Shown here piece after piece: positions 3,497 through 51,973 of a DNA stretch of 53,213 nt. The notes below the pieces were generated by a model. The model was not told the origin of the DNA. It did not search any database and saw only the letters and a list, made by a program, of their open reading frames with translations. Position 1 is the stretch's first letter. Each line of letters starts with the position of its first letter. This stretch comes from an uncultured Mycobacteriales bacterium (lineage in GTDB: Bacteria > Actinomycetota > Actinomycetes > Mycobacteriales > CADCTP01), in contig CADCTP010000412.1 in the NCBI GenBank assembly GCA_902805565.1, positions 1 to 53,213 on the forward strand, written 5' to 3'. The translations under genes and the position numbers were made by a program.

Positions 3497-3575
3497 GGGG
3501 GTCTTCCTACCCCGATCCTGTTACGGGGACTTTGCGTAACGTTCCAGTAATCCGCCTGCGGCACGCTGGAGGGCT

Positions 3576-35440: not shown

Positions 35441-36535
35441 TCAGCCCTCGACGTAGTCGCGCAGCGCGTTCGACCGGGACGGGTGGCGCAGCTTGGCCAT
35501 CGTGTCCCGCTCGATCTGCCGGATGCGCTCCCGGCTCAGCCCGAAGGCCTTGCCGATCTCGTCCAGCGTGCGCGGCCGGCCGTCGTCCAGCCCGTACCGC
35601 ATCCGCAGCACCTGCCGCTCGCGGCTCTCCAGGGTGTCCAGCACCGCGTCGAGCTGCTCGCGCATGAAGCCGAACTCCACCGCGTCCTGCGCGTCCGCGG
35701 CGTCGGAGTCCTCGATGAAGTCGCCCAGGTGGGCGTCCTCGTCGTCACCGACGGTCTGGTCCAGGCTGACCAGGTCCCGGCCGTGCTGCAGCAGCTCGAT
35801 CACCCGCTGCGGGGTGATGTCGAGCTCCAGGCCGAGCTCCTCCTCGGTGGCGTCCCGGCCGAGCTGCTGGTGCAGCAGCCGGCGGGTGCGCTCCAGCTTG
35901 TTGACCTGCTCCACGAGGTGGACGGGCAGCCGGATCGTGCGCCCCTGGTCGGCCATCGCGCGGGTGATGGCCTGGCGGATCCACCAGGTGGCGTAGGTCG
36001 AGAACTTGAAGCCCTTGGTGTAGTCGAACTTCTCCACCGCGCGCACCAGGCCGAGGTTGCCCTCCTGGATCAGGTCCAGGAACGGCAGCCCGTGGCCGGT
36101 GTAGCGCTTGGCCAGCGAGACCACCAGCCGCAGGTTGGCCTGCAGCAGGTGCTCCTTGGCGCGGCGGCCGTCGGTCGCCAGCGCCTGCAGGTCGCGGCGC
36201 TTGGCCGCGGGAATCTTCTTGGTCGTGTCGGCCAGCAGGTGGTCGGCGTAGAGGCCGGCCTCGATGCGCTTGGAGAGCTCGACCTCCTGCTCGGCGTTGA
36301 GCAGGGCCACCTTGCCGATCTCGTTGAGGTAGACCCGGACCAGGTCGGCGGACAGTGCCGCGGACTGCTCGTCCAGGTCGGGCAGCCGCTCGTCGACCTC
36401 GTCGACGGCAGCCGGCGTGCCGGTCGCGTCCGGCCGCGCCCCGGAACGCTGCGTACGGTGGGGCCGGGACATGATCCGCGGCTCCACCGACGCACGGCGG
36501 CGCGGCGTGGCAGAATCGGTGCGAGGAAGGGTCAC
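35441..36535 (-). CDS. group 2 (SigB/Hrd-like) sigma-70 family RNA polymerase sigma factor
   Basis: Region 1.2 is [16 protein letters not shown]. Region 2 is [39 protein letters not shown]. Region 4 is [30 protein letters not shown]. The start is either GTG 36535 or ATG 36472. Confidence 0.85.
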
Positions 36536-36577
36536 GGACTGTACTCCCGGGCTCGGGTGCTGTCGTACGGTCAGTTC

Positions 36578-36602
36578 AACGTTTCGTGGTACGGGGTGTT
36601 CC
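36578..36602 (-). promoter_or_regulatory. ECF-type promoter candidate GGAAC-N16-CGTT upstream of the group-2 sigma gene
   Basis: The minus strand reads GGGGAAC accccgtaccacgaaa CGTT. It lies about 40 nt upstream of GTG 36535. The motif class matches SigE/SigH-type promoters that drive sigB in mycobacteria. Confidence 0.4.
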
Positions 36603-36691
36603 CCGCAGCCCCGAGCTGACCCCTGCGCTCAGCAATCTCACAGTTCTCGGCGCGCCGGCCCGGCCGGTGGTCCCCGATCGCGGCGGACCCG

Positions 36692-37114
36692 TCAGACCTC
36701 GAGCAGGACCGTGTACGGCCCGTCGTTGACCGACGCGACCTGCATGGCCGCCCCGAAGACGCCGGTGGCGACCTCGGCCCCGCGCCCGCGCAGCCCCGCC
36801 ACCACCGCGTCCACCAGCGGCTCGGCGACGTGGCCGGGGGCGGCGGCCGACCAGCTCGGCCGGCGGCCCTTGCGGGCGTCGCCGTACAGGGTGAACTGGC
36901 TGACCACGAGCAGCGGGGCGCCGACCTCGGCGGCGGACCGCTCGTCGCGCAGGATCCGCAGCTCGTGCAGTTTGCGGGCCATCGTGCCGGCGGTCGCGGC
37001 CGAGTCGGTGTGGGTGACGCCGAGCAGCACCAGCAGGCCGGCGCCGATCTCGCCGGTCACCGCCCCGTCCACCGTCACGCTGGCCGAGGACACCCGGGCC
37101 ACCACCGCACGCAC
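36692..37114 (-). CDS. dtd: D-aminoacyl-tRNA deacylase
   Basis: The 140-aa product [17 protein letters not shown]...GLLVLLGV...[17 protein letters not shown]...GVFGAAM matches the classic Dtd pattern. Confidence 0.9.
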
Positions 37115-37249
37115 CGCGCGACTCTAAGGGGTGAGGCCGGCCCCGTCCGGGAAGGTTGGTCGAGCCGGCGCCGGCGGGTCGGTCGGGACCCGCCGGCGCC
37201 GGTGTACCGGAAGAGTCGCCAACCGGTCGATCCGGACATCGGGCTGCGG

Positions 37250-37636
37250 TCAGGGCACCGCCGGCGTGCCGCCCGGCACCGTCGGCAGGCCGGCCGCCGC
37301 CCAGGCCCGGAAGCCGCCGTCCAGGTCGGTGGCCCGGCGCACGCCCAGCCGGCGCAGGGTGTCGGCGGCGAAGCTGGACGCGTACCCGTCGTTGCAGAAC
37401 ACCACGACCCGGCTGTCCGCCCCGGCCTGCGGCAGCCGCCACTCGCCGCCCGGCTCGAACCGCCACTCCAGCACGTTGCGCTCCACCACCAGGGCGCCGG
37501 GGATCTCGCCCTCGGCGGCCCGGAACGCGACCGGCCGGATGTCGACCAGGACCGCGTCCGGCTCGGCCGCCGCCTCGGCCGGGGTGAGCCGGTCCAGCCC
37601 GGCCCGGGCGGCGGCCAGCAGGTCCTCGACGCTCAT
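37250..37636 (-). CDS. rhodanese-like domain protein
   Basis: The gene starts at ATG 37636 (MSVEDLLAAARAG...) and is 128 aa. The active-site loop is FCNDGYASS. The start overlaps the stop of the upstream cysteine dioxygenase (ATGA). Confidence 0.8.
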   Translation of the reverse strand: MSVEDLLAAARAGLDRLTPAEAAAEPDAVLVDIRPVAFRAAEGEIPGALVVERNVLEWRFEPGGEWRLPQAGADSRVVVFCNDGYASSFAADTLRRLGVRRATDLDGGFRAWAAAGLPTVPGGTPAVP

Positions 37637-38124
37637 CCGGGCGGCTCCTCGAGTTGGCCGTCGCCCATCGGCAGCAGCGGGGGCGAGTACGCGTGCACGC
37701 TCGACGCGTTCGGGGTGCCCCGGTTCGCGACGAGGTGCACGCGCTCCGGCCCGAACGCCGCCCCGCCGCCGATCCCGCGCACGCCGCGGCGGGCCGGGAG
37801 GCCGGGGGCGTCCCGCCAGGTCTCGGTCAGCTCGCCGTCCAGGACGGTGTACGAGCCGGCCGCGCCGCCGTGGTCGTGCGGCCGGGTGTGCTGGCCCGGG
37901 GTCCAGGTCAGCAGCCAGACCTCGACCGCCTCGGTGAGGGCGAGGCGGAGGTACCACCGCTGCGCCGGGTCGTGGACCGCCTCGCGGCGCAGGGCGCCGG
38001 GGAGGTCGGCGACCAGCAGCCGGGTCAGCCGGGCCAGGTCGCCGACGGCCCAGGCGCCGCGGCCGGTCACCGCCGGGGCCAGCGACATCAGGGCAGGGTG
38101 GACGTACAGGGTGGACGTGCTCAT
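37633..38124 (-). CDS. cysteine dioxygenase type I (cupin)
   Basis: The gene starts at ATG 38124 (MSTSTLYVHP...) and is 163 aa. The cupin metal motif is TRPHDHGGAAGSYTVLDGEL, with a later HLVAN. Confidence 0.75.
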   Translation of the reverse strand: MSTSTLYVHPALMSLAPAVTGRGAWAVGDLARLTRLLVADLPGALRREAVHDPAQRWYLRLALTEAVEVWLLTWTPGQHTRPHDHGGAAGSYTVLDGELTETWRDAPGLPARRGVRGIGGGAAFGPERVHLVANRGTPNASSVHAYSPPLLPMGDGQLEEPPG

Positions 38125-38260: not shown

Positions 38261-39694
38261 TCAGTGGGGAATGAGAAAGCCCTGCTCGACCAGGCCGCGG
38301 ACGATGCGCTGCACCTGCCCGGCGTCGATCCCGTACGCCAACTCCAGCACCGTGGCCAGCTCGCCCAGCGGCCGATTGCCGTCGCACCCGGCGACCAGGG
38401 CCGCCACCGCCGGGTCCACCGTCGCCGACCAGCGCAGCCCGTGCGGCTGGCGCAGCCGCTGCGCGGTCACCGCCCAGCCCTCCGGCCCCGGGGAGGCGAC
38501 CTGCTCCAGCTGGAGGTCCGGCGCCCGGCCGAAGCGGATCCCGGCCAGGTCGGCGTCCCGGACCGCGTCCAGCCGGTCGAACCAGTCGGCCACGTGCGGC
38601 CCGACCGGCTCCTCGACCTGCTGCGTCACCTCCTCGATCCGTACGGTCGGCACCGCGGCGCCGGACCGGTGCAGGGTGACCAGGCCGAAGCCGATCGCCT
38701 CCACCCCGGCCGCGGCGAACCAGTCCAGCCAGCGGGCGTAGCGGTCCTCGTACTCGCCGGAGCGCCGCTCGCCGGCGTCGGCCAGCCACAGCGCCGCGTA
38801 CTGCGCCGGGTCGGCGACCTCCCGCTGCCACACCCAGGCGTCCACGCCCAGCCCGTCCAGCCAGCCGGCCAGCCGGTCCTCCCAGCGCTCGCCGTCGCGG
38901 TGCACCCAGTTCGCCAGCAGCTGGCACCAGCCGCCGTCGGCGAGCACGCCCGGCGCCTGCCGGATCAGCCGACGGCAGACCTCGTCGCCGGCCAGCCCGC
39001 TGTCGCGGTAGACGAAGCCGCCGTCGCCGGGACCGACCACGAACGGCGGGTTGGACACCACCAGGTCGAACCGCTCGCCCCGCACCGGCTCCAGCAGGTC
39101 GCCGGCCCGCAGGTCCCAGTCCAGCCCGTTGAGCCGGGCGGTGAGCCGGGCCATCGCCAGCGCCCGGGGGAGCACGTCGGTCGCGGTGACCGCCCCGGCG
39201 TGCCGGGACAGGTGCAGCGCCTGGACGCCGCAGCCGGTGCCCAGGTCCAGCGCCGTGCCGACCGGGCGGCGCAGGGTCGCCTGCGACAGCGTGATCGACG
39301 CCGAGCCGACCCCGAGGACGTGGTCGGGCCGCAGCGGGCCGGGGCGCACGTCGGTGCCGAGGTCGGAGACCACCCACCAGTCCTCGTACGGCCGGAGGTC
39401 GACCGCCGCCCGGAACCCGTCGCCGTCGGCCTCCAGCAGGCCGCTGACCGGCATCGCGGCCCGCACGGCCGCCGCCGGCTCGGTGGTGCCGAGCAGGAAC
39501 AGCCGGGTCAGCGTCTCCACCGGCGACCCGCCGGTGGTCGCCCGCAGCGCCGGCACCCGCTCGCCGCGGGCCAGCGCCCCGGTCGCGTCCTCGCCCAACA
39601 GGTCGAGCACCCCGCGGGCGTCGTAGCCGGCGGTCCGCAGGGCGTCCGCCAGTCGGTCGGCCTCGGCGTCGGGCACCAGCGAGTCGGTCAGCAC
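38261..39694 (-). CDS. class I SAM-dependent methyltransferase (NPPF-motif type)
   Basis: The SAM motif I is ALDLGTGCGVQAL and motif IV is VVSNPPF. The start is set to GTG 39694. In-frame GTGs exist upstream, so the start is uncertain. Confidence 0.8.
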   Translation of the reverse strand: MLTDSLVPDAEADRLADALRTAGYDARGVLDLLGEDATGALARGERVPALRATTGGSPVETLTRLFLLGTTEPAAAVRAAMPVSGLLEADGDGFRAAVDLRPYEDWWVVSDLGTDVRPGPLRPDHVLGVGSASITLSQATLRRPVGTALDLGTGCGVQALHLSRHAGAVTATDVLPRALAMARLTARLNGLDWDLRAGDLLEPVRGERFDLVVSNPPFVVGPGDGGFVYRDSGLAGDEVCRRLIRQAPGVLADGGWCQLLANWVHRDGERWEDRLAGWLDGLGVDAWVWQREVADPAQYAALWLADAGERRSGEYEDRYARWLDWFAAAGVEAIGFGLVTLHRSGAAVPTVRIEEVTQQVEEPVGPHVADWFDRLDAVRDADLAGIRFGRAPDLQLEQVASPGPEGWAVTAQRLRQPHGLRWSATVDPAVAALVAGCDGNRPLGELATVLELAYGIDAGQVQRIVRGLVEQGFLIPH

Positions 39695-39978
39695 CCGGCC
39701 ATCCTGGCGGGTCGCCGCCCGACCGGCTCCGCAGGGGTTGCCGGGCTCCTCGACCCGGACCCCACCTCCGGTCGCCCGGGACGCCGTCCGCTCCGGCGGG
39801 TCGCGACGGTGTGTTCCGATCAGGAGAATGTCGTGACAGTGCGTCAATTTCCTTGTTGGCACGCCTGCGCCGTGACAACGTCGACATCCCCGAGTGCTTC
39901 GGTCAGTGGTGGCCCCCCGGCCGCTTCCCGCCGCACATCGCCCGGGTTCCCTGCTCGGCAACGACGAATGGAGCGCAC

Positions 39979-40110
39979 ATGCCGGAGAACGCCGCCGCGG
40001 TCGCCGCGGACATCAGCTCGGAGGCCCTCGACTTCGACGCGGTCAGCGAGGACCTCAACTTCGACGTCGTGAGCCTCAACGAGGAACTGGCGATGCACAA
40101 CCGCAGCTAG
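39979..40110 (+). CDS. candidate RiPP precursor peptide (43 aa)
   Basis: The ATG at 39979 has a GGAG 6 nt upstream (aatGGAGcgcacATG). The product is MPENAAAVAADISSEALDFDAVSEDLNFDVVSLNEELAMHNRS. All codons but one end in G or C. There are 10 acidic residues, and the only Arg and His are in the last four residues. It sits at the head of an enzyme operon. Confidence 0.6.
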   Translation: MPENAAAVAADISSEALDFDAVSEDLNFDVVSLNEELAMHNRS

Positions 40111-40133
40111 CCGGCCGCAGCTAGCCGACGTGA

Positions 40134-40161
40134 GGTCCCGGGCGTCCCGGCGCCCGGGACC
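40134..40161 (+). promoter_or_regulatory. perfect 11-bp GC stem-loop 24 nt after the peptide ORF (attenuator or mRNA-stabilising hairpin candidate)
   Basis: The arm ggtcccgggcg (40134-40144) and the arm cgcccgggacc (40151-40161) are exact reverse complements, with the loop tcccgg. No T-tract follows. Confidence 0.55.
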
Positions 40162-40218
40162 CCGCCCGACGAGACACGTGGAGTCCCCATCACCTCGGCG
40201 ACCATCTCCCTGGACGCG

Positions 40219-41553
40219 ATGCCGCTGCTGCGCGACCCGCAGTTGTCCGTTGACTACAGCGCCCGATTGGTGGCGCAGGGAGTGCTGAGGCCGCTGTTCG
40301 CCGCCGACGCGGGCACCGGGCCGGGCTGCGCCACGCGGGCGAGCCGCCTCGACGGCGGTCGCCGGTGGCGGGTCGTCGTGGACGACGGGCTGCGCTGGTC
40401 CGACGGACGCCGGCTGCACGCCGAGGATCTGGCGGCCGGACTCACGCACGCCGTCCGCGGTCGCGCCGCCGGCGTCCGCGCCTTCATCTCCGGCGCCGAC
40501 GCCGAGCCCCCGATCCGGATCGTCGACCCGGTGACCGTGGAGTACCGCTTCGACCGGCCGGTCGCCTTCGCGACCGAACTGCTGTCGTCGCCCGGTTTCG
40601 CTCCTCGCCGGCCGGGTGTCGACCGGCGCGGTCGGCCACTGTCGCTCGGGCCGTTCACCGTCGCGAGCTGGACGCCGGACCGGATCGTCCTGGAGCGCAC
40701 AGGTGCCGGTGCGGGACCGGCGCGGGTGGCCTTCGTGCACGTGCCCTCGGCCGCCGAGACGGTCCGCCGGTACGACGCGGGCGAACTGGACGCGACCTCA
40801 CCCACCGGGTTCGGCGTCGAGCAGGTCCTGGGGCTCGCCGGGCGGACGGACGTGGTGTCCGCACCGGTGGACATCTTCGGCTCCCTGGACCTCGGCCGGC
40901 GGGCGCCGCGCTCCTGGCTGGCCACCGCCGCTGCCCGGCGTGCGGTCTCCGGGCTGCTGGACCGCCACCGGTTCGCCGCCGTCACGGCCGAGCTGGCCGA
41001 GCCGTGGCACTGGCCGGGCTCCGCCGCCCTGGGGCCCGGCGCGCCCGAGGACCCGACCGCGCCGGCGGACCGCGTCACCGGCCCGCTGGACATCGCGTAC
41101 GCGGATTTCGCGCCGAACGCGGAGCTCGTCACAGAACTGGCCGGGCAGCTCGGCGACGCGTTCGGGGTGCTGGTGTCGACCACCCGGTTGTCGTTCGAGG
41201 ACTACGTCCGGGCGACGGTCTCCCGGGACTACTGCCTGCTGTACTCGCTCACCCTGCCGGCTTTCGGCCACCCGGCCGGCTCGCTGTCGGACTGGCGATC
41301 GACCGGCCCGGCCGCCCGACGCGGTGGGGTTGCCGACCAGGTGCTCGACGCCCTGCTGGACGCCGCTGAGAGCTGCCCGGACCCGGCCGCCGCCGACCCG
41401 CTGTGGGCGGACGTCGCGGCCCGGTGGTGCGCGCTGCTGCCGCGGATCCCGCTGGTCCGGGTACGGGCCGTGTTCCTGCGCGGCCGCCGGTTGCCCGGCC
41501 TGACCGTGACCCGGAGCGGATTGCTGGCCTGCGCGGGAGCGTCGGCGTCGTGA
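40219..41553 (+). CDS. solute-binding protein family 5 (SBP_bac_5)-like protein without a signal peptide
   Basis: 444 aa. Family-typical stretches are RWRVVVDDGLRWSDGRRLHAEDL, IRIVDPVTVEYRFDRPVAFATELL and GPFTVASWTPDRIVLER. The upstream in-frame extension runs into the TAG of the peptide ORF with no ATG/GTG/TTG, so no signal peptide or lipobox is possible. Confidence 0.7.
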   Translation: MPLLRDPQLSVDYSARLVAQGVLRPLFAADAGTGPGCATRASRLDGGRRWRVVVDDGLRWSDGRRLHAEDLAAGLTHAVRGRAAGVRAFISGADAEPPIRIVDPVTVEYRFDRPVAFATELLSSPGFAPRRPGVDRRGRPLSLGPFTVASWTPDRIVLERTGAGAGPARVAFVHVPSAAETVRRYDAGELDATSPTGFGVEQVLGLAGRTDVVSAPVDIFGSLDLGRRAPRSWLATAAARRAVSGLLDRHRFAAVTAELAEPWHWPGSAALGPGAPEDPTAPADRVTGPLDIAYADFAPNAELVTELAGQLGDAFGVLVSTTRLSFEDYVRATVSRDYCLLYSLTLPAFGHPAGSLSDWRSTGPAARRGGVADQVLDALLDAAESCPDPAAADPLWADVAARWCALLPRIPLVRVRAVFLRGRRLPGLTVTRSGLLACAGASAS

Positions 41554-41585: not shown

Positions 41586-43472
41586 ATGGACGGCACCGAC
41601 GCGGACGTCTGGCTCGTCTTCCCACCGTTGATCGAGACCAACTTCGGCAGCTTCTACCCGTCGACGGCGGTGCTGGCCGCCTACCTGCATGCGCAGGGCC
41701 TCCGTGCCGACCAGGCCGACCTCAACGAGGACTTCGCGGTCTGGCTGTTGCGCAGCACCGTCGACGGCGTCCCGCTGGCCGGCACCCCGCCGCCGGCGGA
41801 GTCGACCGCCGCGGCCGCCGGCCGCTGGCTCGCCAGGTCCTGGCACAAGCTGGTCGAGGAGGACGGGCGGCACGGCTTCGGCCCGTCCTCCGACTACGGT
41901 CATGTGCTGCAATTGCTCGCCCGGCATTACGTGGTGGATCCGGACGAGGGGGTGCTGGACCGCGATCCGGCCGCGGTCGAGGGCGCGGCTCTCTACCGGC
42001 AGTTCTACGAGCAGGCGGGACTCGCCACCCGGATGCCCCCGGCGACCGCGCTGATCGGGATCTCGGTCCCGATGGGTCCGCAGCTGCTGCCGGCTCTGGA
42101 GCTCGCCGAGCAGCTCAAGCGACTGCGGCCGGCGGCGCCGATCGTCCTCGGCGGTCCCGCGCTGAGCCTGATGAGTCCGCCAGAGATCGAGCGGCTGCTG
42201 GTCGGGTGGGACGCGGTGGACGCGGTGGTCCGGTTCGACGGCGAGATCCCGTTGCACCAGCTGGCCGTGCAGGCGACGACGGGCCAGTGGCGACCGGAGG
42301 TGGTGCCCGGGGTGTCCTGCCGGGCCGCCGGCACGGTCCGGCACGTCCCGCCCGGCGCCGGGCCCGCCATCAACCTGCTGCCGGTCCCGGCCTATCCGGC
42401 ACCGGCGCTCGCCGTGCTCGGCGACCCGGTCCTCGGCGTCACGCAGGCCCGCGGCTGCTACTGGGGCAAGTGCGACTACTGCGACTTCGTCGAGCTGTAC
42501 GACGGCAGCCCACCATTCCGCGGTCGCCGTCCGGACGGCTTCGTCGCCGAGCTGCGGACGCTGGCCGACACCTTCGGCGTGTCGAAGTTCAGCTTCATCA
42601 CCGAGTCGATCCCGCCGGCGTTCGCCCGCAGGGTGTGCGCCGACATCCTCGCGCAGGGCTTGGACCTGCGGTGGAGCTCGTTCGCGATGGTCGACCGCCG
42701 ATTCGATCGGCAGTTGCTGGCCCTCATGGTCGAGGCCGGCTGCGAGTTCCTGACCATTGGCATGGAGACGACCGTCACCCGGGTGCTCAAGCTGGTGCAC
42801 AAGTCGGCCGACCGGGAGGAGAACCTCCGGTTCCTGGCCGACGCCCGCGATGTCGGGTTGCCACTCGTGATCAACTTGATACCGGACCTGCCCACCACCA
42901 CGTTCGACGAGGCGATGGGCGCGCTGGCCGACGTGCGGGAGTTCGCTCCGGGACTGCGGGCGGTGGCGGTGTTCCCCTTCGAGCCGACCCGCTCCTCCCA
43001 GGTCGGCCGGACACCCGAGTTGTTCGGTCTGGACGTCGGCGTGGCCGCGACCACCACCGGCCAGGCCGAGTACGCCCTCAACCACCTGGTCAGCAACGAC
43101 CCGGCGATGACCCCGGCGGAGCGGGCGGAGGTGCACCGCCAGTACCGGGCGTTCGCCGAGACGGTCAACGGCCGGCCGGCCGTCCTCCGGGCGTACGGTT
43201 CGGACGAGCTGCTCCGGGTGGCGGTGGAGGACCTGGACCTGCTCGACAGCGAGGCCGGGCTGGTCTGCACCAATCTCCGCACCCGGGCCCGGGCGGTGAT
43301 CCCGGAGCGGGTGGCCGGAATGGTCCGCCCGCACCTCGCCGGCCGGCCGTTCTCGCCGGCGACCATGCACCCGTCCCTCAGCCCGACGGGCGCGGCCCGG
43401 GTGCTCGCGAGCCTGGACCGGGTCGCGATGCTCGCCCCGCTCGGCCCCGGTGCGCGTGCCGCCGGTGGGTGA
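41586..43472 (+). CDS. B12-binding domain radical SAM enzyme (class B)
   Basis: The ATG at 41586 follows GAGGAGGAG. The gene is 628 aa. The N-terminal Rossmann-like segment VWLVFPPLIETNFGSFYPSTAVLAAYLHAQG is typical of B12-binding rSAM proteins. The cluster motif is ARGCYWGKCDYCDF (42456-42482). Later stretches are FLTIGMET and INLIPDLP. Confidence 0.85.
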   Translation: MDGTDADVWLVFPPLIETNFGSFYPSTAVLAAYLHAQGLRADQADLNEDFAVWLLRSTVDGVPLAGTPPPAESTAAAAGRWLARSWHKLVEEDGRHGFGPSSDYGHVLQLLARHYVVDPDEGVLDRDPAAVEGAALYRQFYEQAGLATRMPPATALIGISVPMGPQLLPALELAEQLKRLRPAAPIVLGGPALSLMSPPEIERLLVGWDAVDAVVRFDGEIPLHQLAVQATTGQWRPEVVPGVSCRAAGTVRHVPPGAGPAINLLPVPAYPAPALAVLGDPVLGVTQARGCYWGKCDYCDFVELYDGSPPFRGRRPDGFVAELRTLADTFGVSKFSFITESIPPAFARRVCADILAQGLDLRWSSFAMVDRRFDRQLLALMVEAGCEFLTIGMETTVTRVLKLVHKSADREENLRFLADARDVGLPLVINLIPDLPTTTFDEAMGALADVREFAPGLRAVAVFPFEPTRSSQVGRTPELFGLDVGVAATTTGQAEYALNHLVSNDPAMTPAERAEVHRQYRAFAETVNGRPAVLRAYGSDELLRVAVEDLDLLDSEAGLVCTNLRTRARAVIPERVAGMVRPHLAGRPFSPATMHPSLSPTGAARVLASLDRVAMLAPLGPGARAAGG

Positions 43473-44499
43473 GCCCGTCCTCCGGTTGCTGGACACGGTC
43501 GAGGTCGCCCCGGCGGTCCACGAGGAGGAGCCGACCCTGCTGGTCCGCGGCGACCGGATGCTGCGGATCCGCCGGCCGAGCCGGGCCGTGGCGGAGGCGC
43601 TGTCGATGCTCCGGCACGGTCTGGCCGAACCCGACATCACTGCCCCTGACGTACGGCGCCTGGTGGACGAGCTGTCCGGGCTCGGCTGGCTGACCGCGGA
43701 GCCGCCCTGGCCCGGTTCCGCGGCCGGGTGGGACCGGCAGGTCGGCTGGTGGTCGACGCTCACCGCCGACGGTCAGGCCGCGCAGCGCCGCGTGGCCGCC
43801 GCCGACGTGGCCGTCCTGGGGCTGGGCGGGATCGGCGCGCCGGTCGCGCAGCACCTCGCGGCCGGCGGCGTCGGCAGGCTCCGCCTGATCGACCCCGACG
43901 TGGTCGAGCCGCACAACCTCAACCGGCAGTACCTGTACGGCCGCGCCGACGTCGGCCGGGCCAAGGTGGACGCGGCGGCGGACGGGCTCGGCCGCCTGAC
44001 CGACACCGTCGGCCTGCAGCGGACCCGGCTCCGGGTCACCACCCCGGCGGACCTCGACGTGCTGCGCGGCAAGGTGGACCTGCTGGTGGTCGCGGCCGAC
44101 CGGCCCGCCGACCTGATGGACACCGTCTGGGCCTGGGCGGCGCCTCGGGGGGTGCCGGTCCTCGGTTCCGGGGTGGGCCTGGGCACCGGCTACTGGGGGC
44201 CGCTGCTCGACCCGCGCCGGGGCCACTGCTGGCCGTGCACCGAGCGGGCCCGGCGGCACCGGCTGAGCGCCGACGAACGCCGGCTGGAGGACCGCGGCGG
44301 CCCCACGCCGTACTCCTTCGGCCCGACGAACGCGATCATCGCCGACCATGTCGCCCGGGACGGGCTGCTGTTCCTCGCGCTCGGCCGGTGCATCAGCCTG
44401 GACCGTCGGGTCCTGCTCGACGTGGTCGGGATCCCGGCCGGCGGGGCGCCGCAGGCCGCCGGGTCTCCCGGATGTCGGCACACCGGGGGAACAGCATGA
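43450..44499 (+). CDS. E1/ThiF-family adenylating enzyme with a PqqD-like (RRE-like) N-terminal extension
   Basis: The nucleotide-binding motif is VAVLGLGGIGAPVAQHLAAGGVG (43819-43836 encodes GLGGIG), followed by RLIDPDVVEPHNLNRQYLY, VVAADRPAD and a CxxC (GHCWPC). N-terminal residues 10-85 (...RAVAEALSMLRHGLAEPDITAPDVRRLVDELSGLGWL) resemble PqqD/RRE. The start is GTG 43450 or 43465, and both overlap the rSAM 3' end. Confidence 0.8.
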   Translation: MRVPPVGEPVLRLLDTVEVAPAVHEEEPTLLVRGDRMLRIRRPSRAVAEALSMLRHGLAEPDITAPDVRRLVDELSGLGWLTAEPPWPGSAAGWDRQVGWWSTLTADGQAAQRRVAAADVAVLGLGGIGAPVAQHLAAGGVGRLRLIDPDVVEPHNLNRQYLYGRADVGRAKVDAAADGLGRLTDTVGLQRTRLRVTTPADLDVLRGKVDLLVVAADRPADLMDTVWAWAAPRGVPVLGSGVGLGTGYWGPLLDPRRGHCWPCTERARRHRLSADERRLEDRGGPTPYSFGPTNAIIADHVARDGLLFLALGRCISLDRRVLLDVVGIPAGGAPQAAGSPGCRHTGGTA

Positions 44500-46253
44500 T
44501 CGTCCTGGGGCTGTCGGCGCTGTACCACGACTCGGCGTGCGCGGTCTTCCGCGACGGCCGGCTGGTCGCGGCCGCGCAGGAGGAGCGGTTCACCCGGCGC
44601 CGGTTCGACCCGGCGATGCCGGTCCGGGCGGTCCGGGCCTGCCTGCGCGACGCCGGCCTCGGGATCGGCGACGTGGACCACGTCGCGTACTACGAGGACC
44701 CGGTGGGCAAGTTGAGCCGGCAACTGTGGATGGGCCTGCCCGCAGTCCCGGATGCGTCCCGGCGAACGCTGTTCCGGTTGGATGCGCGCCGCCCGGCCCG
44801 GCAGATCGAGGAACTGCTCGGGTATCCGGGTCCGGTCACCTTCGTCCCGCACCACGAGTCGCACGCGGCGAGCGCCTTCCACCAGTCCGGCTTCTCCGAC
44901 GCCGCGCTGTTCACGGCGGACGCGGTCGGCGAGTGGGCCACCACCAGCTACGGCACGGGCGGACCGAACCGGTTCGAGCTCTTCGAGCAGGTCGACTTCC
45001 CGCACTCGCTAGGCATCCTCTACAGCGCGGTCACGTCGTTCCTCGGCTTCGCGGTCAACAGCGACGAGTACAAGGTGATGGGGCTCGCGCCGTACGGGAC
45101 GCCGCGGTACGCCGACCGGCTGCGCGGGCTGCTGACCGACCTGCCGCGTGGGCAGTTCCGGTTGGACCAGGACTGCTTCGACCTCAGTGGGCGGTCGCCG
45201 ATGTACACGGCGGCGCTGGGCGAGCTGCTCGGCGCGGAGCCCCGGGAGCCGGAGTCCGCGCTGTCCGCCGCACACTCCGATCTGGCGGCCAGCGTGCAGC
45301 TCGTACTGGAGGACATCCTGCTGGCCAAGCTCCGCTTCCTGCACGCCGAAACCGGACTCGGGCGGCTCTGCTACGCCGGCGGGGTCGCGCTGAACTGCGT
45401 CGCCAACCGGGTGATCCGGGAGCGGGGCCCGTTCGCCGAGGTCTTCGTGCAGCCGGCGGCCGGGGACGCCGGCGCCGCGATCGGAGCGGCCGCGCTGGTC
45501 AGTGCCCGGCTCGGCGCGGGGGTCCGGCCGGAGCGGCTGACCGACGTACGGCTCGGACCGGCGCCCGACCTCGGGCCGGTGGCGGCCTGGCTGGCCGCGG
45601 CAGGCGTGCCGTTCGAGGCCCACACGGACGATGAGGCGGGACTGGTCGGGCGGGCCGCCGAGGAGTTGGCGGGGGGAGCGGTGCTGGGGTGGTTCCAAGG
45701 ACGGATGGAGTTCGGCCCGCGGGCGCTCGGGGCCCGCTCCATCCTCGCCGATCCGCGCCGTGGTGACATGCGCGACCACATCAACGCGCTGGTCAAGAAG
45801 CGCGAGGCGTTCAGGCCGTTCGCGCCGGCGGTGGTGGCCGAGCGTGCCGGCGAGTTCTTCGGGCTGGCCGGCGACTCGCCGTTCATGCTCTTCACCGCCG
45901 ATGTCCGCGAGCCGGCCGCGCTGCCCGCGGTCACCCACGTCGACGGCAGCGCTCGCGTGCAGACGGTGGACCGGGCGGTGGATCCGCGGTTCCATGCGCT
46001 GCTCACCGCCTTCGGTCGCCGCACCGGGTTCCCGGTGCTCCTCAACACCTCCTTCAACATGCGCGGCGAGCCGATCGTCGCGACCCCGGCCGACGCGCTG
46101 GCCTGCTTCGTACGGTCCCGGCTGGACGTGCTCGTCCTCGGGGACCTGGTCGTCCGGGCGGCGGACCTTCCCGCGCACTGGGCCGGCCTGGTGGACCAGC
46201 AGTTGCCGTACCAGCTCCCGACCCTGGACCGCGATGTCTACTCCTTCCTCTGA
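44496..46253 (+). CDS. NodU/CmcH-family carbamoyltransferase
   Basis: The ATG at 44496 overlaps the ThiF-like stop (ATGA). The N-terminus is MIVLGLSALYHDSACAVFRDGRLVAAAQEERFTRRRFD. Other typical stretches are HHESHAASAF, the YAGGVALNCVAN context and the C-terminal LLNTSFNMRGEPIVATPADALACF. Confidence 0.9.
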   Translation: MIVLGLSALYHDSACAVFRDGRLVAAAQEERFTRRRFDPAMPVRAVRACLRDAGLGIGDVDHVAYYEDPVGKLSRQLWMGLPAVPDASRRTLFRLDARRPARQIEELLGYPGPVTFVPHHESHAASAFHQSGFSDAALFTADAVGEWATTSYGTGGPNRFELFEQVDFPHSLGILYSAVTSFLGFAVNSDEYKVMGLAPYGTPRYADRLRGLLTDLPRGQFRLDQDCFDLSGRSPMYTAALGELLGAEPREPESALSAAHSDLAASVQLVLEDILLAKLRFLHAETGLGRLCYAGGVALNCVANRVIRERGPFAEVFVQPAAGDAGAAIGAAALVSARLGAGVRPERLTDVRLGPAPDLGPVAAWLAAAGVPFEAHTDDEAGLVGRAAEELAGGAVLGWFQGRMEFGPRALGARSILADPRRGDMRDHINALVKKREAFRPFAPAVVAERAGEFFGLAGDSPFMLFTADVREPAALPAVTHVDGSARVQTVDRAVDPRFHALLTAFGRRTGFPVLLNTSFNMRGEPIVATPADALACFVRSRLDVLVLGDLVVRAADLPAHWAGLVDQQLPYQLPTLDRDVYSFL

Positions 46254-48249
46254 GCCGGGTCGGCGGCCGGCCGGCCGGCACCGCCGCCGTGTCGACCGGC
46301 TCGCCCGCCTGCTCGCCGACGAGCGAGGCACCGAGCTGCTCGCCGAACTGCAGAAGCTCGGCCTCGAGGCCGGCCCCACCGGGTCCCGGCCGGCCGCCGG
46401 CGCCGCGCCGGCGGTGGCCGCGGTCGGTGTCTGGTGGGTGCTCCCCACCCCGTCCGGTCCGGAGCTGCGTCGACGGGAGCTGCCCGCGGAGGAGCTGCGC
46501 GGGTGGGCCGACGTCGAGCACGTCCCTGCCGCCGGGGAGGCGATACGGGTGGTGTTGCTGGGCGAGTCCACCGCCCGCGGCTTCCTGCTGGACCCGGTGT
46601 TCACCCCGGCCGTGGCGCTGCAGGACCGGCTGGATGCCGGCGGCGCGTACCAGGTCGTGGACCTCGCCCACGTCGGCGCGGACGCACGCGACCTGACCGA
46701 GGTCGCATCGGCGCTGCCGGCGCTGGAGCCGGACGTGGTGGTGGTGCTCGCCGGCAACAACTGGGCCCGGCCGCGGCACACCCCGGGGTCGCTCGACCTG
46801 CTGGCCGGCGCGCTGCGGGAGGGCGGCTACCCGGCGCTGCGCCGTGCGCACGCCGAGGGCGTCGTGGCACCGGGGATCGAGCGGGCGCTGGACGCGCTCG
46901 CGGCAGTGCCCGCGGCGCGGGTGGTCGTGGTGGTGCCCGAGTTCAACACCGGCGGTTGGGCGCCGGACCCGGAGCTGGAGCTGCCACCGCTGGCGCCGGC
47001 CGACCTGCGATCGTGGACGGCGCTGCGCAGGGCGGCCGAGACCGCGCTGGCGACCGGCGACCTGGCCGGGGTGCGCGCCGCGACGACTGCCATGACCCGG
47101 CTGGACGCCGGCACCAGCCCGGTCCCGGGCCGGCTGCGGGCGCTCGCCGCCACCGATCCGGACGAGGTCCGTACCGCCCTGGAGGAGTCCCGGGACGCGG
47201 GGACCGGCCTACTCACCACGCACACCCCGCGGCTCACCGCCGACGTCCGGGCCCGGTTGCTCGCCGGTGCCCGCCGCCGCGGCTTCGACGTGCTCGACCT
47301 CGCCCCGGTGCTGCGGGCCCACCCGGACGCTCCCTGCCCGGACCCCGACCTGTTCCTGGACTACTGCCACCTCAGCGCCCGGGGGACGGCCACGGTGACA
47401 GCGGCGGTGGCGGATGTGCTGACCGGTCGGCCGCCCGGTACGACCCCACCGGCGGGCTTGCCGACGCCGGACGACTCGGCGATCGCCGACCTGCTGGCCG
47501 CCGTCCACAACAGCTACTACGGCCAGTCGCGGGAGCGGGTCGAGGAACTGGTGCGGCGCGCGGTCAAGGAGAGTCCGGCGGGCCGGGAGTTCGCTGTCGC
47601 GTTGCGTGACCTGCTCGGTAGTGCGGGACCGGTGTGGACCTCACCCACGCTGCAGGTCCTGCTCCGGCGACCCCATGCCGCCCGCTACCTCGCGCCGCTG
47701 CTGTCCCGGGAGGCCGGGACGCTCGGGGTGTGGGGCCTGCGCGCGGCACTGCTGGCCGAGCTGGGCCCGCCCCCGACCACGCCGCCCCCACCCACGGTCG
47801 TGGATCTGCTCCGCGCCGCCGAACAGGGCCTGCTGGACGGCGCTTTCCGCTCGGTCACCCAGCAGCCGGAACGGTCGTTCTTCCGCGCGTTCGGAGTCGA
47901 GTCGCATTTCGGCTTCGCCCTTCCCGCTGCCAACGCGTCCGGGCGTATTCGCGTGACCGGTCGGGTACCGGCCGCGCTCGATCCGGCCGCACCGGTGCAC
48001 GTCCTGGTGAACGACTGCCCGATCGGCACCGTTCCGGCCGGTCCGGGCTGGAGTGCCGCGGACATTGTCGTGCCGCCCGGGGTGCTCCGGCCGGGAATTA
48101 ACGATCTGATGATCCGATGGCCGACGGGCGGCGCGGACTGGAAGAACCGGCAGCTCACAGACGCGCGGGCACTGGCCTGCGGGGAGTACCCGACGGTGCT
48201 CGCCGTTCAGGGTGAGGTCTTCGATATCCTGTTGGAACTCGACCGGTGA
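46234..48249 (+). CDS. SGNH-hydrolase-fold protein with a large uncharacterised C-terminal region
   Basis: The ATG at 46234 overlaps the carbamoyltransferase by 20 nt (alternative GTG 46291). SGNH-like block I is IRVVLLGESTARG, block III is VLAGNNW, and block V is LDYCHLS. The C-terminal region of about 300 aa has no motif I recognise. Confidence 0.65.
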   Translation: MSTPSSEPGRRPAGRHRRRVDRLARLLADERGTELLAELQKLGLEAGPTGSRPAAGAAPAVAAVGVWWVLPTPSGPELRRRELPAEELRGWADVEHVPAAGEAIRVVLLGESTARGFLLDPVFTPAVALQDRLDAGGAYQVVDLAHVGADARDLTEVASALPALEPDVVVVLAGNNWARPRHTPGSLDLLAGALREGGYPALRRAHAEGVVAPGIERALDALAAVPAARVVVVVPEFNTGGWAPDPELELPPLAPADLRSWTALRRAAETALATGDLAGVRAATTAMTRLDAGTSPVPGRLRALAATDPDEVRTALEESRDAGTGLLTTHTPRLTADVRARLLAGARRRGFDVLDLAPVLRAHPDAPCPDPDLFLDYCHLSARGTATVTAAVADVLTGRPPGTTPPAGLPTPDDSAIADLLAAVHNSYYGQSRERVEELVRRAVKESPAGREFAVALRDLLGSAGPVWTSPTLQVLLRRPHAARYLAPLLSREAGTLGVWGLRAALLAELGPPPTTPPPPTVVDLLRAAEQGLLDGAFRSVTQQPERSFFRAFGVESHFGFALPAANASGRIRVTGRVPAALDPAAPVHVLVNDCPIGTVPAGPGWSAADIVVPPGVLRPGINDLMIRWPTGGADWKNRQLTDARALACGEYPTVLAVQGEVFDILLELDR

Positions 48250-49571
48250 CTGTTCCGGAGAAGAGTCGGACAAGGGACGGGGAACGCTTCATGCGCCGGT
48301 CGTCCCTGCGGGGAACGGGCTTCTTCACGATCTGGTTGGGCGAGTCCCTCTCGCTCGTCGGGGCCCAGGTGACGTTCTTCGCGTTACCGCTGGTCGCCAT
48401 TCTCGCGCTGGACGCGGACGCGCTCGGGATGGGTCTGCTCACGGCGGCCGGATCGCTCGCCGTGCTGCTGCTCGCCCCGTCGATCGGGGTCTGGGCCGAC
48501 CACCACGAGCGCCGCACCACCATGGTGGTGGCGAACCTTGCCCGGGGCCTGCTGCTGGGCACCGTCCCTCTCGCGTACGTCCTCGACGCGCTCACCCTGC
48601 CGCTGCTGATCGCGGTGGCCTTCGGGGTCGGGGCGCTGACCCTCCTGTTCGACAGCGCCATGTCCTCGTACGTGCCGGCCCTGGTCGGACCGAAGCGGCT
48701 GGTGGCCGCGAACTCCTGGATGCAGAGCAGCATCTCGGTGGCGGACACCGCCGGCCCGGGCCTGGCCGGACTGCTGGTGCAGGTGCTCGGGGCGCCGATC
48801 GCGGTCCTCGCCGACGCGCTGAGCTACCTCGCCAGCACGGTGGCGCTGCTCGCGTCGCCCCGGGTCGGCAAGCCCCCGGAGCCGGCCGAGCGGGAGTTGC
48901 ACTGGGCCGCGATCAAGCAGGGCCTGCGGATCGTGCTCACCGACCGGATCCAGCGCCCGCTGGCGCTCGCCGCCGGTCACTTCAACCTTTTCACCTCCAT
49001 GTTCTTCACGCTCTACCTGCTCTTCCTGGTACGGACGCTGGACTTCAGCCCGCTGCTGATCGGCCTGCTGAACATCGCAGGTGGCGTGGCCGGCCTGACC
49101 GGCGCCGGGATCAGCGCCCGGCTCGCCCGTCGCTTCGGCTACGGCCCGGTGCTCACGGTCGTCTACGCCCTGCCCGGGGTCGCCGCACTGCTGGTGCCGC
49201 TGGCCGGCCGGGTCGGCCCGGTGTCCGGCGCGCTGCTCGTCGCCGCGTCCAGCGCCCTGTGGTCCGGCTCGGTGATCGTCAACCTGGTGCTGAGCGAGTC
49301 GATCAAGCAGGCGCTGGTGCCGCACCACCTGCTCGGTCGGGCCACGTCGATCATCCGGTTCATCAGCTTCGGGGTGGAGCCGATCGGGGCGCTGCTGGGT
49401 GCCGCGCTGGTCGGGCTCGGCCTCAGCCTCGGCGGCACCCTGGCCGTGGCGTCCATCGGGGTCGGTAGCAGCGCGGTGTGGCTGCTGGCCAGCGGCGTCG
49501 CCAAGTTGCAGGACCCGGTGTCGCCCGCACCCGCGCCGACGCCGGCCGGCACCGCACCCGAGGAGGTCTGA
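48246..49571 (+). CDS. MFS transporter (EntS/MFS_3-like efflux type)
   Basis: The GTG at 48246 overlaps the upstream stop (GTGA). The gene is 441 aa with about 12 hydrophobic segments. The N-terminal pattern FFTIWLGESLSLVGAQVTFFALPLVA and the stretch WADHHERRTTMVVANL are typical of the MFS_3 group. Confidence 0.85.
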   Translation: MTVPEKSRTRDGERFMRRSSLRGTGFFTIWLGESLSLVGAQVTFFALPLVAILALDADALGMGLLTAAGSLAVLLLAPSIGVWADHHERRTTMVVANLARGLLLGTVPLAYVLDALTLPLLIAVAFGVGALTLLFDSAMSSYVPALVGPKRLVAANSWMQSSISVADTAGPGLAGLLVQVLGAPIAVLADALSYLASTVALLASPRVGKPPEPAERELHWAAIKQGLRIVLTDRIQRPLALAAGHFNLFTSMFFTLYLLFLVRTLDFSPLLIGLLNIAGGVAGLTGAGISARLARRFGYGPVLTVVYALPGVAALLVPLAGRVGPVSGALLVAASSALWSGSVIVNLVLSESIKQALVPHHLLGRATSIIRFISFGVEPIGALLGAALVGLGLSLGGTLAVASIGVGSSAVWLLASGVAKLQDPVSPAPAPTPAGTAPEEV

Positions 49572-51205: not shown

Positions 51206-51250
51206 GCCGGCCCGGCGGGCGACATCCATCCTGATCGAGGGAGAGCAGCG

Positions 51251-51973
51251 ATGACCGCAGCAGTCACCGACGCGACCGTCCGGGCGGCCGCGGCCGCGCA
51301 CCGCCGGGCGTTGATCGAGCAGTTCACCGGTCCGGTGGTCGCCGAGGCGGTCCGGCGGATCGGCCCGGCCGGCAGGGACATCCTCACCCCGATGTCCCTG
51401 CTGCCGCCCGAGCGGACCGAGCCGCTGCTGGCCTGCCTGAGCGAGCAGCAGGCGTGGCGGCAGGAGAAGTGGCTGATCTTCCCGGACGAGAGCGTGCGGA
51501 TGTGCTCCGACGAGGAGTTCGCCGCCGCCGCGCCGCACACGCGCTTCTCCTACAACGACTGCCTGCGCTCGCTGCCGAAGGACGCCTACCCGGTGCGCGG
51601 CCTGCTGTCGGCGATGGAGAGCCCCGAGGTGGCCGCCGCGCTGTCCGAGGCGTACGGGGCGGGGATCGAGCTCAAGGGCATCGACATGGCCCGCTACACC
51701 GAGGGCCACTACCTGCGCCGGCACGCGGACACCTTCGCCGACCGGCGCTTCGGGTTCATCTTCTTCGTGTCCGACGGCTGGGTGCCGGGCAGCGGCGGCG
51801 AGCTCGTCGTGGAGGCGCCGAGCGGCGAGGCGCGGGTCGCCTACCCGGTGCGCGGCGACGTGGCGCTGCTCCGGATCAGCCCGGGCTTCCAGCACGAGGT
51901 CTGCCAGGTCCGCTCCGCCACCTGGACCCGCTACGTGCTGTCGATCCACTTCGGCATCCGCGCCGGGGGCTGA
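51251..51973 (+). CDS. 2OG-Fe(II) oxygenase superfamily protein
   Basis: 240 aa. The HxD is in GHYLRRHADTF, the distal His is in GFQHEV, and an Arg lies in TRYVLSIHF. These are consistent with the prolyl-hydroxylase-like 2OG oxygenase fold. Confidence 0.65.
   Translation: MTAAVTDATVRAAAAAHRRALIEQFTGPVVAEAVRRIGPAGRDILTPMSLLPPERTEPLLACLSEQQAWRQEKWLIFPDESVRMCSDEEFAAAAPHTRFSYNDCLRSLPKDAYPVRGLLSAMESPEVAAALSEAYGAGIELKGIDMARYTEGHYLRRHADTFADRRFGFIFFVSDGWVPGSGGELVVEAPSGEARVAYPVRGDVALLRISPGFQHEVCQVRSATWTRYVLSIHFGIRAGG

Follow-up and report, generated by a model that had tools for sequence, protein, structure and literature searches.

Conserved small acidic peptides of actinomycetes as predicted substrates of a ThiF-like and a B12-radical-SAM enzyme

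The contig CADCTP010000412.1, which comes from an uncultured Mycobacteriales bacterium and was analyzed over its whole length of 53,213 nucleotides (henceforth the window), contains a 43-codon open reading frame (ORF) followed by a co-directional block of genes that extends through position 51973. In DNA with 74.5% G+C an ORF of this size raises the question of whether it is a gene at all and, if so, what the adjacent genes, including those for a ThiF-like adenylating enzyme and a radical S-adenosylmethionine (SAM) enzyme, might do with its product. Sequence comparisons lead us to conclude that it is genuinely a gene, conserved in actinomycetes, whose product is a small acidic peptide. We further consider it very probable that this peptide is the precursor of a peptide that is ribosomally synthesized and then modified post-translationally (a RiPP), and the substrate of a translationally coupled set of proteins comprising a cytoplasmic OppA-like peptide-binding protein, a B12-radical-SAM enzyme and an MccB-like ThiF enzyme. 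The elements of the ORF needed for the argument are:

39979-40110, + strand: predicted precursor-peptide gene (43 amino acids, then TAG)
39970-39973, + strand: ribosome-binding site GGAG, read from the sequence, 5 nt before the ATG
40075-40107, + strand: C-terminal segment LNEELAMHNRS, the probable core, from column counts over 26 peptides

Positions 39979-40110 translate exactly to MPENAAAVAADISSEALDFDAVSEDLNFDVVSLNEELAMHNRS*. Third codon positions are G or C in 42 of the 43 codons (98% GC3; the exception is GAA), and the G+C content by phase around the ORF follows the order position 3 > 1 > 2, in agreement with its frame. The start codon is backed by relatives of the peptide that begin with MAEN, MAED or MPES. 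The composition is unusual, with ten Asp or Glu residues, no Lys, a sole His at residue 40 and a sole Arg at residue 42. A preliminary description of this DNA had already reported the translation, the GGAG element, the near-exclusive use of codons ending in G or C, the ten acidic residues without Lys, the confinement of Arg and His to the last four residues, and the paired motifs LDFDAVS (40027-40047) and LNFDVVS (40054-40074) set 9 residues apart; on re-translation and recounting all of these were recovered as described.

A word-indexed protein search with the single window peptide returned only the peptide itself. Relatives were instead reached through homologues of the ThiF-like protein, which led to syntenic loci, from which peptide relatives were collected by synteny and later by profile searches. 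The peptide profile found further called genes, an exhaustive hidden Markov model search of 1.84 billion representatives gave eleven more, and a profile scan of genome contigs with the ThiF alignment mostly retrieved generic MoeB/ThiF genes, with one useful locus (L001, discussed below). The resulting set used for all column counts consists of 26 distinct peptides (the window peptide and 25 relatives) of 32-54 amino acids. Syntenic loci were found in Streptomyces, Actinomadura, Micromonospora, Saccharothrix and metagenomes, and in at least five genera of actinomycetes the relatives agree in frame, position of the stop and motifs. In 12 of 12 syntenic loci examined a homologous small ORF lies directly 5' of the gene for the OppA-like protein, at a gap of 58-148 nt. 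The test put forward in the preliminary description, that ORF, frame and stop should be conserved in syntenic clusters combining the solute-binding-protein, radical SAM and ThiF genes, was therefore passed, and a small co-oriented ORF that is conserved beside modifying enzymes across clusters (12 loci, 26 peptides) is what a RiPP precursor gene is expected to look like.

The last 20 residues of the 26 peptides align without a gap as (E/D)(E/D)-L-(D/E)-F-(D/E)-x-x-x-L-(N/S)-(E/D)-x-L-x-x-x-(N/H)-R-(C/S). Numbered backwards from the terminal residue (position 0), the columns read:

Position -17: L in 24 of 26
Position -15: F in 26 of 26 (invariant)
Position -14: D or E in 26 of 26
Position -10: L in 26 of 26 (invariant)
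Position -9: N or S in 26 of 26
Position -8: E or D in 25 of 26
Position -7: Y in 11, E in 8, Q in 4, others (V, L, D)
Position -6: L in 25 of 26
Position -4: M, A, F, L, V, T or S
Position -2: N or H in 26 of 26
Position -1: R in 26 of 26 (invariant)
Position 0: C in 19, S in 7

Four columns are thus two-state (D/E at -14, N/S at -9, N/H at -2 and C/S at 0). The segment LNEELAMHNRS of the window peptide contains L-10, N/S-9, E/D-8, L-6, N/H-2, R-1 and C/S-0. The F-D motif and the C-terminal residues, whose conservation had been proposed as a check, turned out to be the most conserved parts of the family. Conservation of the tail had been anticipated in terms of a basic AMHNRS sequence; the tail is indeed conserved, but the conserved element is (N/H)-R-(C/S), rather than its basicity or AMHNRS itself. 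The suggestion of a very short core at the extreme C-terminus fared less well, in that the last 20 residues are all conserved, including the acid at -8, and the modified region may comprise about 11 residues.

Nucleotide differences across nine loci are distributed over codon positions 1/2/3 as 178/208/391, and a comparison of the window with its closest relative, L093, revealed a peptide region much more similar than either flank. Together these observations argue that the ORF is a gene under purifying selection. Across the loci Cys is encoded by TGT or TGC, and TAA, TGA and TAG all occur as the stop.

Within the family the window peptide stands out by a duplication of its acidic motif. The repeats in and around the gene are:

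40021-40047, + strand: distal 9-codon copy EALDFDAVS, an insertion relative to the family in the alignment, subclade-specific
40048-40074, + strand: proximal 9-codon copy EDLNFDVVS, bearing the recognition motif common to the family, (E/D)(E/D)-L-(D/E)-F-(D/E), at its fixed distance to the C-terminus
40101-40127, + strand: perfect 14-nt tandem repeat CCGCAGCTAGCCGG x1.9, called by Tandem Repeats Finder and covering the Arg-Ser-stop codons

The two 9-codon copies agree at 6/9 residues and 22/27 nt. Their similarity was equalled by 57 of 20,000 residue shuffles and by 1 of 20,000 codon shuffles, so the repeat exceeds chance; Tandem Repeats Finder did not call this 27-nt repeat because two copies at 81% fall under its threshold. 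Only the window peptide and its closest relative, P0095, have the duplication, the other 24 peptides being single-copy, and only the proximal copy keeps the family-wide spacing of 15 residues to the C-terminus. P0095 shares its sample of origin with the closest relative cluster (70% identity to the window in the ThiF-like protein and 82% in the radical SAM enzyme) and reads MPESLDTEARSEELDFDIVSEDLDFDVVSLNEELAMHNRS, with both copies and the same HNRS end. In P0095/L093 the distal copy is EELDFDIVS and retains 7/9 residues, whereas the N-terminal segments of P0095 and the window peptide have diverged with an indel, which suggests that the second copy is being maintained. We read the L-D-F-D duplication as a true 27-nt tandem duplication and a subclade trait. 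The earlier proposal of a duplicated motif offering two docking sites therefore stands as regards the reality of the repeat, but it is limited to the window and P0095 and does not extend to the family. The 14-nt repeat CCGCAGCTAGCCGG is specific to the window, absent from L093 and without effect on the protein; taken with the 27-nt duplication, it points to a tendency of this short gene to undergo replication slippage.

The first 14 relatives to be collected all ended in Cys, and the terminal Ser of the window peptide, which differs from Cys by a single base (AGC vs TGC), was considered as a sequencing error or the mark of a decaying cluster. Both explanations were rejected: a near-identical but distinct assembly (L091; 10 single-nucleotide differences in 6132 nt) encodes the same peptide including the terminal Ser, Ser also ends P0095 and five peptides from other branches, and in L094, a locus of the Ser type, the core genes are the same and intact.

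What might act on such a peptide? Genes were called from GC3 frame analysis along with Pfam and NCBIfam matches, and loci were compared by tblastn over 9 syntenic loci. This revealed a constant core consisting of the peptide gene and the following four genes:

40219-41553, + strand: SBP_bac_5 (OppA/PrgZ-like) protein without a signal peptide, here SBP5-like (Pfam 1.9e-20)
41586-43472, + strand: B12-binding radical SAM enzyme (Pfam and NCBIfam matches)
43450-44499, + strand: ThiF-like adenylating enzyme with a predicted N-terminal peptide-clamp/RiPP recognition element (RRE) domain (Pfam ThiF 1.2e-32)
48216-49571, + strand: MFS_3/MFS_1 transporter of the major facilitator superfamily (MFS) (Pfam and NCBIfam matches)

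In the PDB the best sequence matches of the ThiF-like protein are to MccB (2e-19) and PaaA (6e-15). Its predicted structure (predicted local distance difference test score, pLDDT, 90.8) matched MccB over the full length in Foldseek searches (E-value 1e-25, template-modeling score 0.72-0.76, 340-358 of 349 columns) and PaaA over 342 columns (E-value 1e-20), whereas for plain ThiF and MoeB the match extends over no more than about 240-260 columns. The modeled structure therefore has, at its N-terminus (about residues 1-95), the peptide clamp that RiPP-type enzymes possess. Across 31 homologues the adenylation residues do not vary, these being GxGxxG (G124/G126/G129), N156 and R159 of N-L-N-R-Q, K172 and D217, so that an E1-like domain with intact ATP/Mg residues is fused to a peptide-binding domain as in ThiF-like RiPP enzymes. 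Likewise, the pairing of a recognition sequence with a recognition domain that marks RiPP systems would be provided by L-(D/E)-F-(D/E) in the peptide and the predicted clamp in the enzyme. Its gene overlaps the stop of the radical SAM gene, with candidate starts at 43450, 43465 and 43486.

The nearest solved relatives of the SBP5-like protein are the peptide binders PrgZ and OppA, and a hydrophobic N-terminus was seen in none of 10 loci. A family-conserved (I/L)-S-L-D-A-M-P-L (ISLDAMPL in the window) lies in frame upstream of the ATG at 40219; the gene probably starts at ATC 40189, 5 nt after a GGAG at 40180-40183, which is the sole plausible start. The radical SAM enzyme is 52-82% identical to its syntenic counterparts, shows weak matches to rSAM_ocin_1 and ApyD and only weak similarity to RiPP C-methyltransferases, and in 9 of 9 loci has the motif CYWGKCDYC (residues 291-299), of the form Cx4Cx2C instead of the canonical Cx3Cx2C. 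The MFS transporter, present in 9/9 syntenic loci by tblastn and in L094, is the probable exporter.

An outlying version of the system was recovered in L001 (an uncultured Actinomycetota metagenome-assembled genome, 6270-10759), in the order peptide, B12-radical SAM, SBP5-like and ThiF-like, with 40% identity in the ThiF-like protein and 26% in the radical SAM enzyme. Its radical SAM motif is the canonical CTYKCKFC, and its candidate peptide, without an L-D-F-D motif, ends in ...NPTTMGLIIMRRC (M-R-R-C). Hence the trio and the R-C end travel together.

The rest of the neighborhood consists of the following features:

40130-40165, + strand: G+C-rich hairpin between the peptide and SBP5-like genes, with a 12-bp core stem and 3 outer pairs (fold energy -37.9 kcal/mol, z -2.8)
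44496-46253, + strand: NodU/CmcH-type carbamoyltransferase, accessory (Pfam; in 7 of the compared loci)
46234-48249, + strand: 671-residue protein with a weak GDSL/SGNH hydrolase signature, accessory (Pfam 1.2e-6, under the cut-off)
49469-51205, + strand: ABC-F protein of ribosomal-protection-like type (NCBIfam ribo_prot_ABC_F 5.5e-78)
51206-51973, + strand: 2-oxoglutarate (2OG)-Fe(II) oxygenase, accessory, last conserved gene of the block (Pfam; 57-59% identity to L081 and L082)
38261-39694, - strand: DUF7059/MTS/DUF7782 methyltransferase, divergent upstream gene, no counterpart in the other loci

Stems of 12-20 bp occur at the place of the hairpin in 9 of 9 loci folded, though their sequence is not conserved; z is -2.8 or lower in seven of these nine loci, and -2.4 in L081 and -1.1 in L083. 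The window hairpin is a single stable stem without a T-run or an alternative pairing with the ORF. A promoter/terminator scan of 39500-40400 made no calls, the hairpin included, and an Rfam search of the same region returned no known element.

Around the constant core, of which L086 is the minimal example, the accessory genes comprise the carbamoyltransferase and GDSL-like pair, oxygenases, a second radical SAM gene with DUF5825, and a methyltransferase. The GDSL-like gene, for whose product no PDB sequence relative was found, adjoins the carbamoyltransferase gene in 6 of the 7 other loci that have the latter, and is absent from the stretch of L085 examined. The ABC-F gene probably starts near 49570. 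Its product scores 263 bits against an NCBIfam cut-off of 380, nearer to ribosomal-protection models than to EttA or Uup. It is 56-83% identical in 7/9 loci, and in L081, L082 and L089 it is the best-conserved cluster protein (78-83%, vs 56-62% for the ThiF-like and 56-59% for the SBP5-like proteins); no ABC-F homologue was found by tblastn in the examined stretches of L086 and L087. The lack of a counterpart of the upstream methyltransferase elsewhere implies that the cluster begins at the peptide gene. Further upstream (35441-38124, - strand) are genes for a sigma-70 family factor (35441-36535), a D-Tyr-tRNA deacylase (36692-37123), and a rhodanese and a cysteine dioxygenase (about 37250-38124), which are not conserved beside the cluster elsewhere and hence appear unrelated.

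Two variations in other loci were also observed. In a subfamily with a His-Arg-Cys end (L084 15079-17600 and L085 12309-14779) a second B12-radical-SAM gene is followed by DUF5825, along with extra 2OG oxygenases, a set that replaces or supplements the carbamoyltransferase and GDSL-like pair. In L089 a second small ORF, MTVLVESAEAGVKTESSRNEKAKPAPADLTFHREPLDNTLAAVHLTEA (5490-5636, - strand), lies beside an extra radical SAM gene (3465-5444, - strand); its leader-like segment D-L-T-F-H-R-E-P-L...L-A-A-V-H resembles the family motif and it ends in L-T-E-A instead of R-C. It may encode a paralogue of the precursor, with another fate.

These elements can be assembled into a tentative pathway. The peptide gene would be transcribed with the operon, and the hairpin may set or stabilize an excess of peptide message. 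The acidic (E/D)(E/D)-L-(D/E)-F-(D/E) motif would pair as a strand with the N-terminal clamp of a ThiF-like dimer, and the fixed spacer of 15 residues would then bring the C-terminus to the adenylation site; in IndF and EnfB the peptide is bound on the RRE of one protomer and threaded into the second protomer's active site (PMC12150305). Next, the enzyme would adenylate a carboxylate, which would be captured by the terminal residue's side chain (Cys, or Ser in the window) to form a macro(thio)lactone, making the (N/H)-R-(C/S) C-terminus the presumed site of modification. The preferred carboxylate is that of E/D at -8, the alternative being the C-terminal alpha-carboxylate. The model for the former is GrcB, a ThiF-like enzyme with an RRE, which forms a thiolactone from a Glu to the C-terminal Cys, Cys39 being the last residue, on a peptide of the GRC subfamily (PMC12250964; PMC12596934; PMC13361665). 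The SBP5-like protein would hand the peptide to the radical SAM enzyme, which lacks its own clamp and probably C-methylates the core or else modifies it in another way. The carbamoyltransferase, the GDSL-like protein and the 2OG oxygenase would tailor the product and the MFS protein export it, while the ABC-F protein might shield the producer's ribosome, suggestive of a product that targets translation. In the subclade of the window the distal copy of the motif may hold a second partner.

The macro(thio)lactone is favored as the chemistry because the alternations of Asp with Glu at -8 and of Cys with Ser at 0 are those expected of (thio)ester partners, and because GrcB provides a precedent; our preference for it is tentative, and we would place it just short of an even call. 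Several observations weigh against this reading and the pathway around it. Position -8 is not acidic throughout: in L089 a T stands there, followed by E at -7, and acidic residues are missing from the last 18 residues of the L001 peptide, exceptions that favor the C-terminal carboxylate as the site shared by all members. MccB, which is closest in structure, acts on the C-terminal carboxylate and not on a side chain. The entire C-terminal third of the peptide is conserved instead of hypervariable, which is atypical of a RiPP core, and no leader-removing protease is evident in the minimal cluster L086. The idea of a ribosomal target is soft, given that the ABC-F protein lies under the curated cut-off and no ABC-F gene was found in the stretches of L086 and L087 examined. 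More generally, whatever goes beyond the anatomy of the locus, that is modification, binding and product, is what we infer from it.

The first of these points leads to the most serious alternative, in which the ThiF-like enzyme adenylates the C-terminal alpha-carboxylate, like MccB, IndF and EnfB, and another nucleophile captures the acyl-adenylate. The capturing group might be the side chain of the terminal Cys or Ser, which would yield a beta-(thio)lactone warhead; the guanidine of the Arg, the side chain of Asn or His at -2, a backbone amide and an external amine or nucleotide are candidates too. The C-terminal carboxylate is the sole one common to all members including L001, the invariant R at -1 and the two-state N/H at -2 adjoin the terminus, MccB is the best match both in structure and in sequence, and IndF and EnfB do act on C-terminal carboxylates (PMC12150305; PMC12596934). 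On the other hand, such activation leaves the near-invariant E/D at -8 and the N/S at -9 unexplained, high lability would be expected of a four-membered (thio)lactone at a free peptide end, and the sole characterized ThiF-like enzyme with an R-C-ended substrate uses a Glu side chain (PMC12250964). We therefore regard activation of the C-terminus as a real but rather unlikely alternative. The C-terminus-directed E1-like enzyme envisaged in the preliminary description is supported by the two-domain architecture of MccB and PaaA, which fits leader docking and action near the C-terminus, with the correction that the activated carboxylate could be the side chain at -8.

A different role for the peptide would be that of a scaffold, on which the last 1-3 residues (N/H-R-C/S) are modified in place by the radical SAM enzyme, the ThiF-like enzyme, the oxygenase and the carbamoyltransferase and cut off as a small antibiotic derived from amino acids, the carrier perhaps being recycled. 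Extreme, gap-free conservation is what a carrier would show, and pearlins such as 3-thiaglutamate provide a precedent (PMC11002830). The carbamoyltransferase, the 2OG oxygenases and PhyH are tailoring genes typical of small-molecule pathways, the hydrolase-like 671-residue protein could release the product, and ABC-F resistance is typical for small ribosome-binding antibiotics. Against this, neither a PEARL enzyme (LanB-like, aminoacyl-tRNA-dependent), the hallmark of the pearlin type, nor a recognizable peptidase was found in the cluster with Pfam and NCBIfam, the terminal residue is genetically encoded, and the minimal cluster L086 is without any tailoring or hydrolase gene. A scaffold-peptide pathway is thus improbable.

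Far less credible is a regulatory role, in which the ORF would encode a leader or arrest peptide that attenuates the operon with the help of the hairpin and is not an enzyme substrate at all. ABC-F resistance genes are often under leader-peptide control, and a hairpin lies 3' of the ORF in every locus folded. However, the hairpin is a single stable stem with neither a T-run nor an alternative pairing with the ORF, Rfam returned no known element, the ORF precedes the SBP5-like gene and not the ABC-F gene, it strictly co-occurs with the peptide-clamp ThiF enzyme, and what is conserved is a set of specific residues at fixed distances from the C-terminus, including the Cys/Ser end, and not a stall motif. 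Finally, that the ORF is no gene but a chance product of a 74.5% G+C genome, where long spurious ORFs abound and where an antisense ORF of 298 residues does overlap the site, is refuted for practical purposes by the 25 relatives that share its frame, stop position and motifs, the coding-type substitution pattern, the ribosome-binding site and the GC3 value.

With the peptide best understood as a RiPP precursor, we compared the family with the known ThiF-type systems. The GRC-type radical SAM RiPPs, whose subfamily is named after a conserved G-R-C motif, likewise combine a short precursor ending in Arg-Cys with an RRE-ThiF enzyme, one or more radical SAM enzymes and a transporter (PMC12250964; PMC12596934), and the Cys/Ser and Asp/Glu alternations seen here fit their logic of a carboxylate plus a terminal nucleophile. 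Yet the residue before Arg is Asn or His here and Gly there, so that a Gly-Arg-Cys end is lacking; the conserved acid is at -8 in place of a Glu at -4; and Ser replaces Cys in 7/26 peptides. In addition, the GRC systems have GrcC, GrcD and a standalone RRE, where the present family has one B12-type radical SAM enzyme (Cx4Cx2C) and an SBP5-like protein, and they are under Rgg/SHP (short hydrophobic peptide) quorum-sensing control, whereas neither an Rgg nor a standalone RRE was found in the window cluster with Pfam and NCBIfam. They are also streptococcal, while the hosts here are actinomycetes with an ABC-F gene; this comparison with GrcB is by description only.

In the microcin C system (the MccA heptapeptide and MccB) the peptide C-terminus is similarly delivered to the adenylation site, and MccB is the best full-length match including the clamp. 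However, MccA ends in Asn, whereas 26/26 peptides here end in Cys or Ser and have Asn or His at -2; MccB forms a peptidyl-nucleotide N-P bond via a succinimide; and the present peptides are 32-54 residues long with obligatory radical SAM and SBP5-like partners. The pantocin A system (PaaP, PaaA, the oxygenase PaaB and the exporter PaaC) shares an RRE-ThiF enzyme, a 2OG-type oxygenase and an MFS-type exporter, and PaaA is the second-best structural match, although the oxygenase is accessory here and not core. The E-E-N-A-M-Y of PaaP superficially resembles N-E-E-L-A-M-H of the window peptide. A pantocin-like reading based on E-E-x-A-M, the oxygenase and the MFS protein was rejected, as the Glu-Glu is not conserved, position -7 is variable and no Asn follows. 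The IndF and EnfB systems resemble the family in the RRE-ThiF fusion and the C-terminus-directed chemistry, but those Firmicutes clusters are minimal, employ Trp or a backbone amide as the nucleophile and have different core motifs, with neither a radical SAM enzyme nor an SBP5-like protein. As for the azoline cyclodehydratases, no YcaO domain gene was found in the window cluster or the syntenic loci, and the match to TIGR03882 is only 0.0023. In sum, the family works like ThiF-like RiPP systems, yet it fails the defining features tested for each of the named systems.

In the openly accessible literature, searched with the core sequences too, we did not find this peptide family described, though an earlier publication remains possible; no cluster from actinomycetes appears in the supplement of the paper on the RRE-ThiF network, and two 2025 reviews of the field list only the chemistries of MccB, PaaA, GrcB, EnfB and IndF. 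Nor did we find in the accessible literature a precedent for the solute-binding-protein fold as an intracellular RiPP partner. Taken as a whole, it is possible, and we propose it with due reserve, that these clusters define a new actinomycete RiPP class, in which an MccB-like clamp-ThiF enzyme, a Cx4Cx2C B12-radical-SAM enzyme and a cytoplasmic OppA-like protein recruited as a peptide chaperone build a (thio)lactone or other warhead at (N/H)-R-(C/S), the product being a translation inhibitor against which the ABC-F protein protects.

ThiF-like enzymes are a small but growing source of unusual peptide chemistry, which includes N-P bonds, indolizidinones, thiolactones, indolylamides and cyclic imides. 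In the present family the naturally occurring exchanges between Cys and Ser and between Asp and Glu can serve as ready-made mechanistic probes, and the ABC-F gene points to a testable hypothesis for the target, namely the ribosome; as several carriers are cultured strains, the prediction is directly testable. Among these strains are Streptomyces sp. NPDC005898, whose peptide is of the Cys type, Streptomyces marispadix, Micromonospora sp. DT233 and Saccharothrix xinjiangensis. The characterized ThiF-like cases all come from Proteobacteria or Firmicutes. The family described here would extend them to actinomycetes, and would tie these enzymes obligatorily to a B12-radical-SAM enzyme and a solute-binding-protein homologue without a signal peptide.

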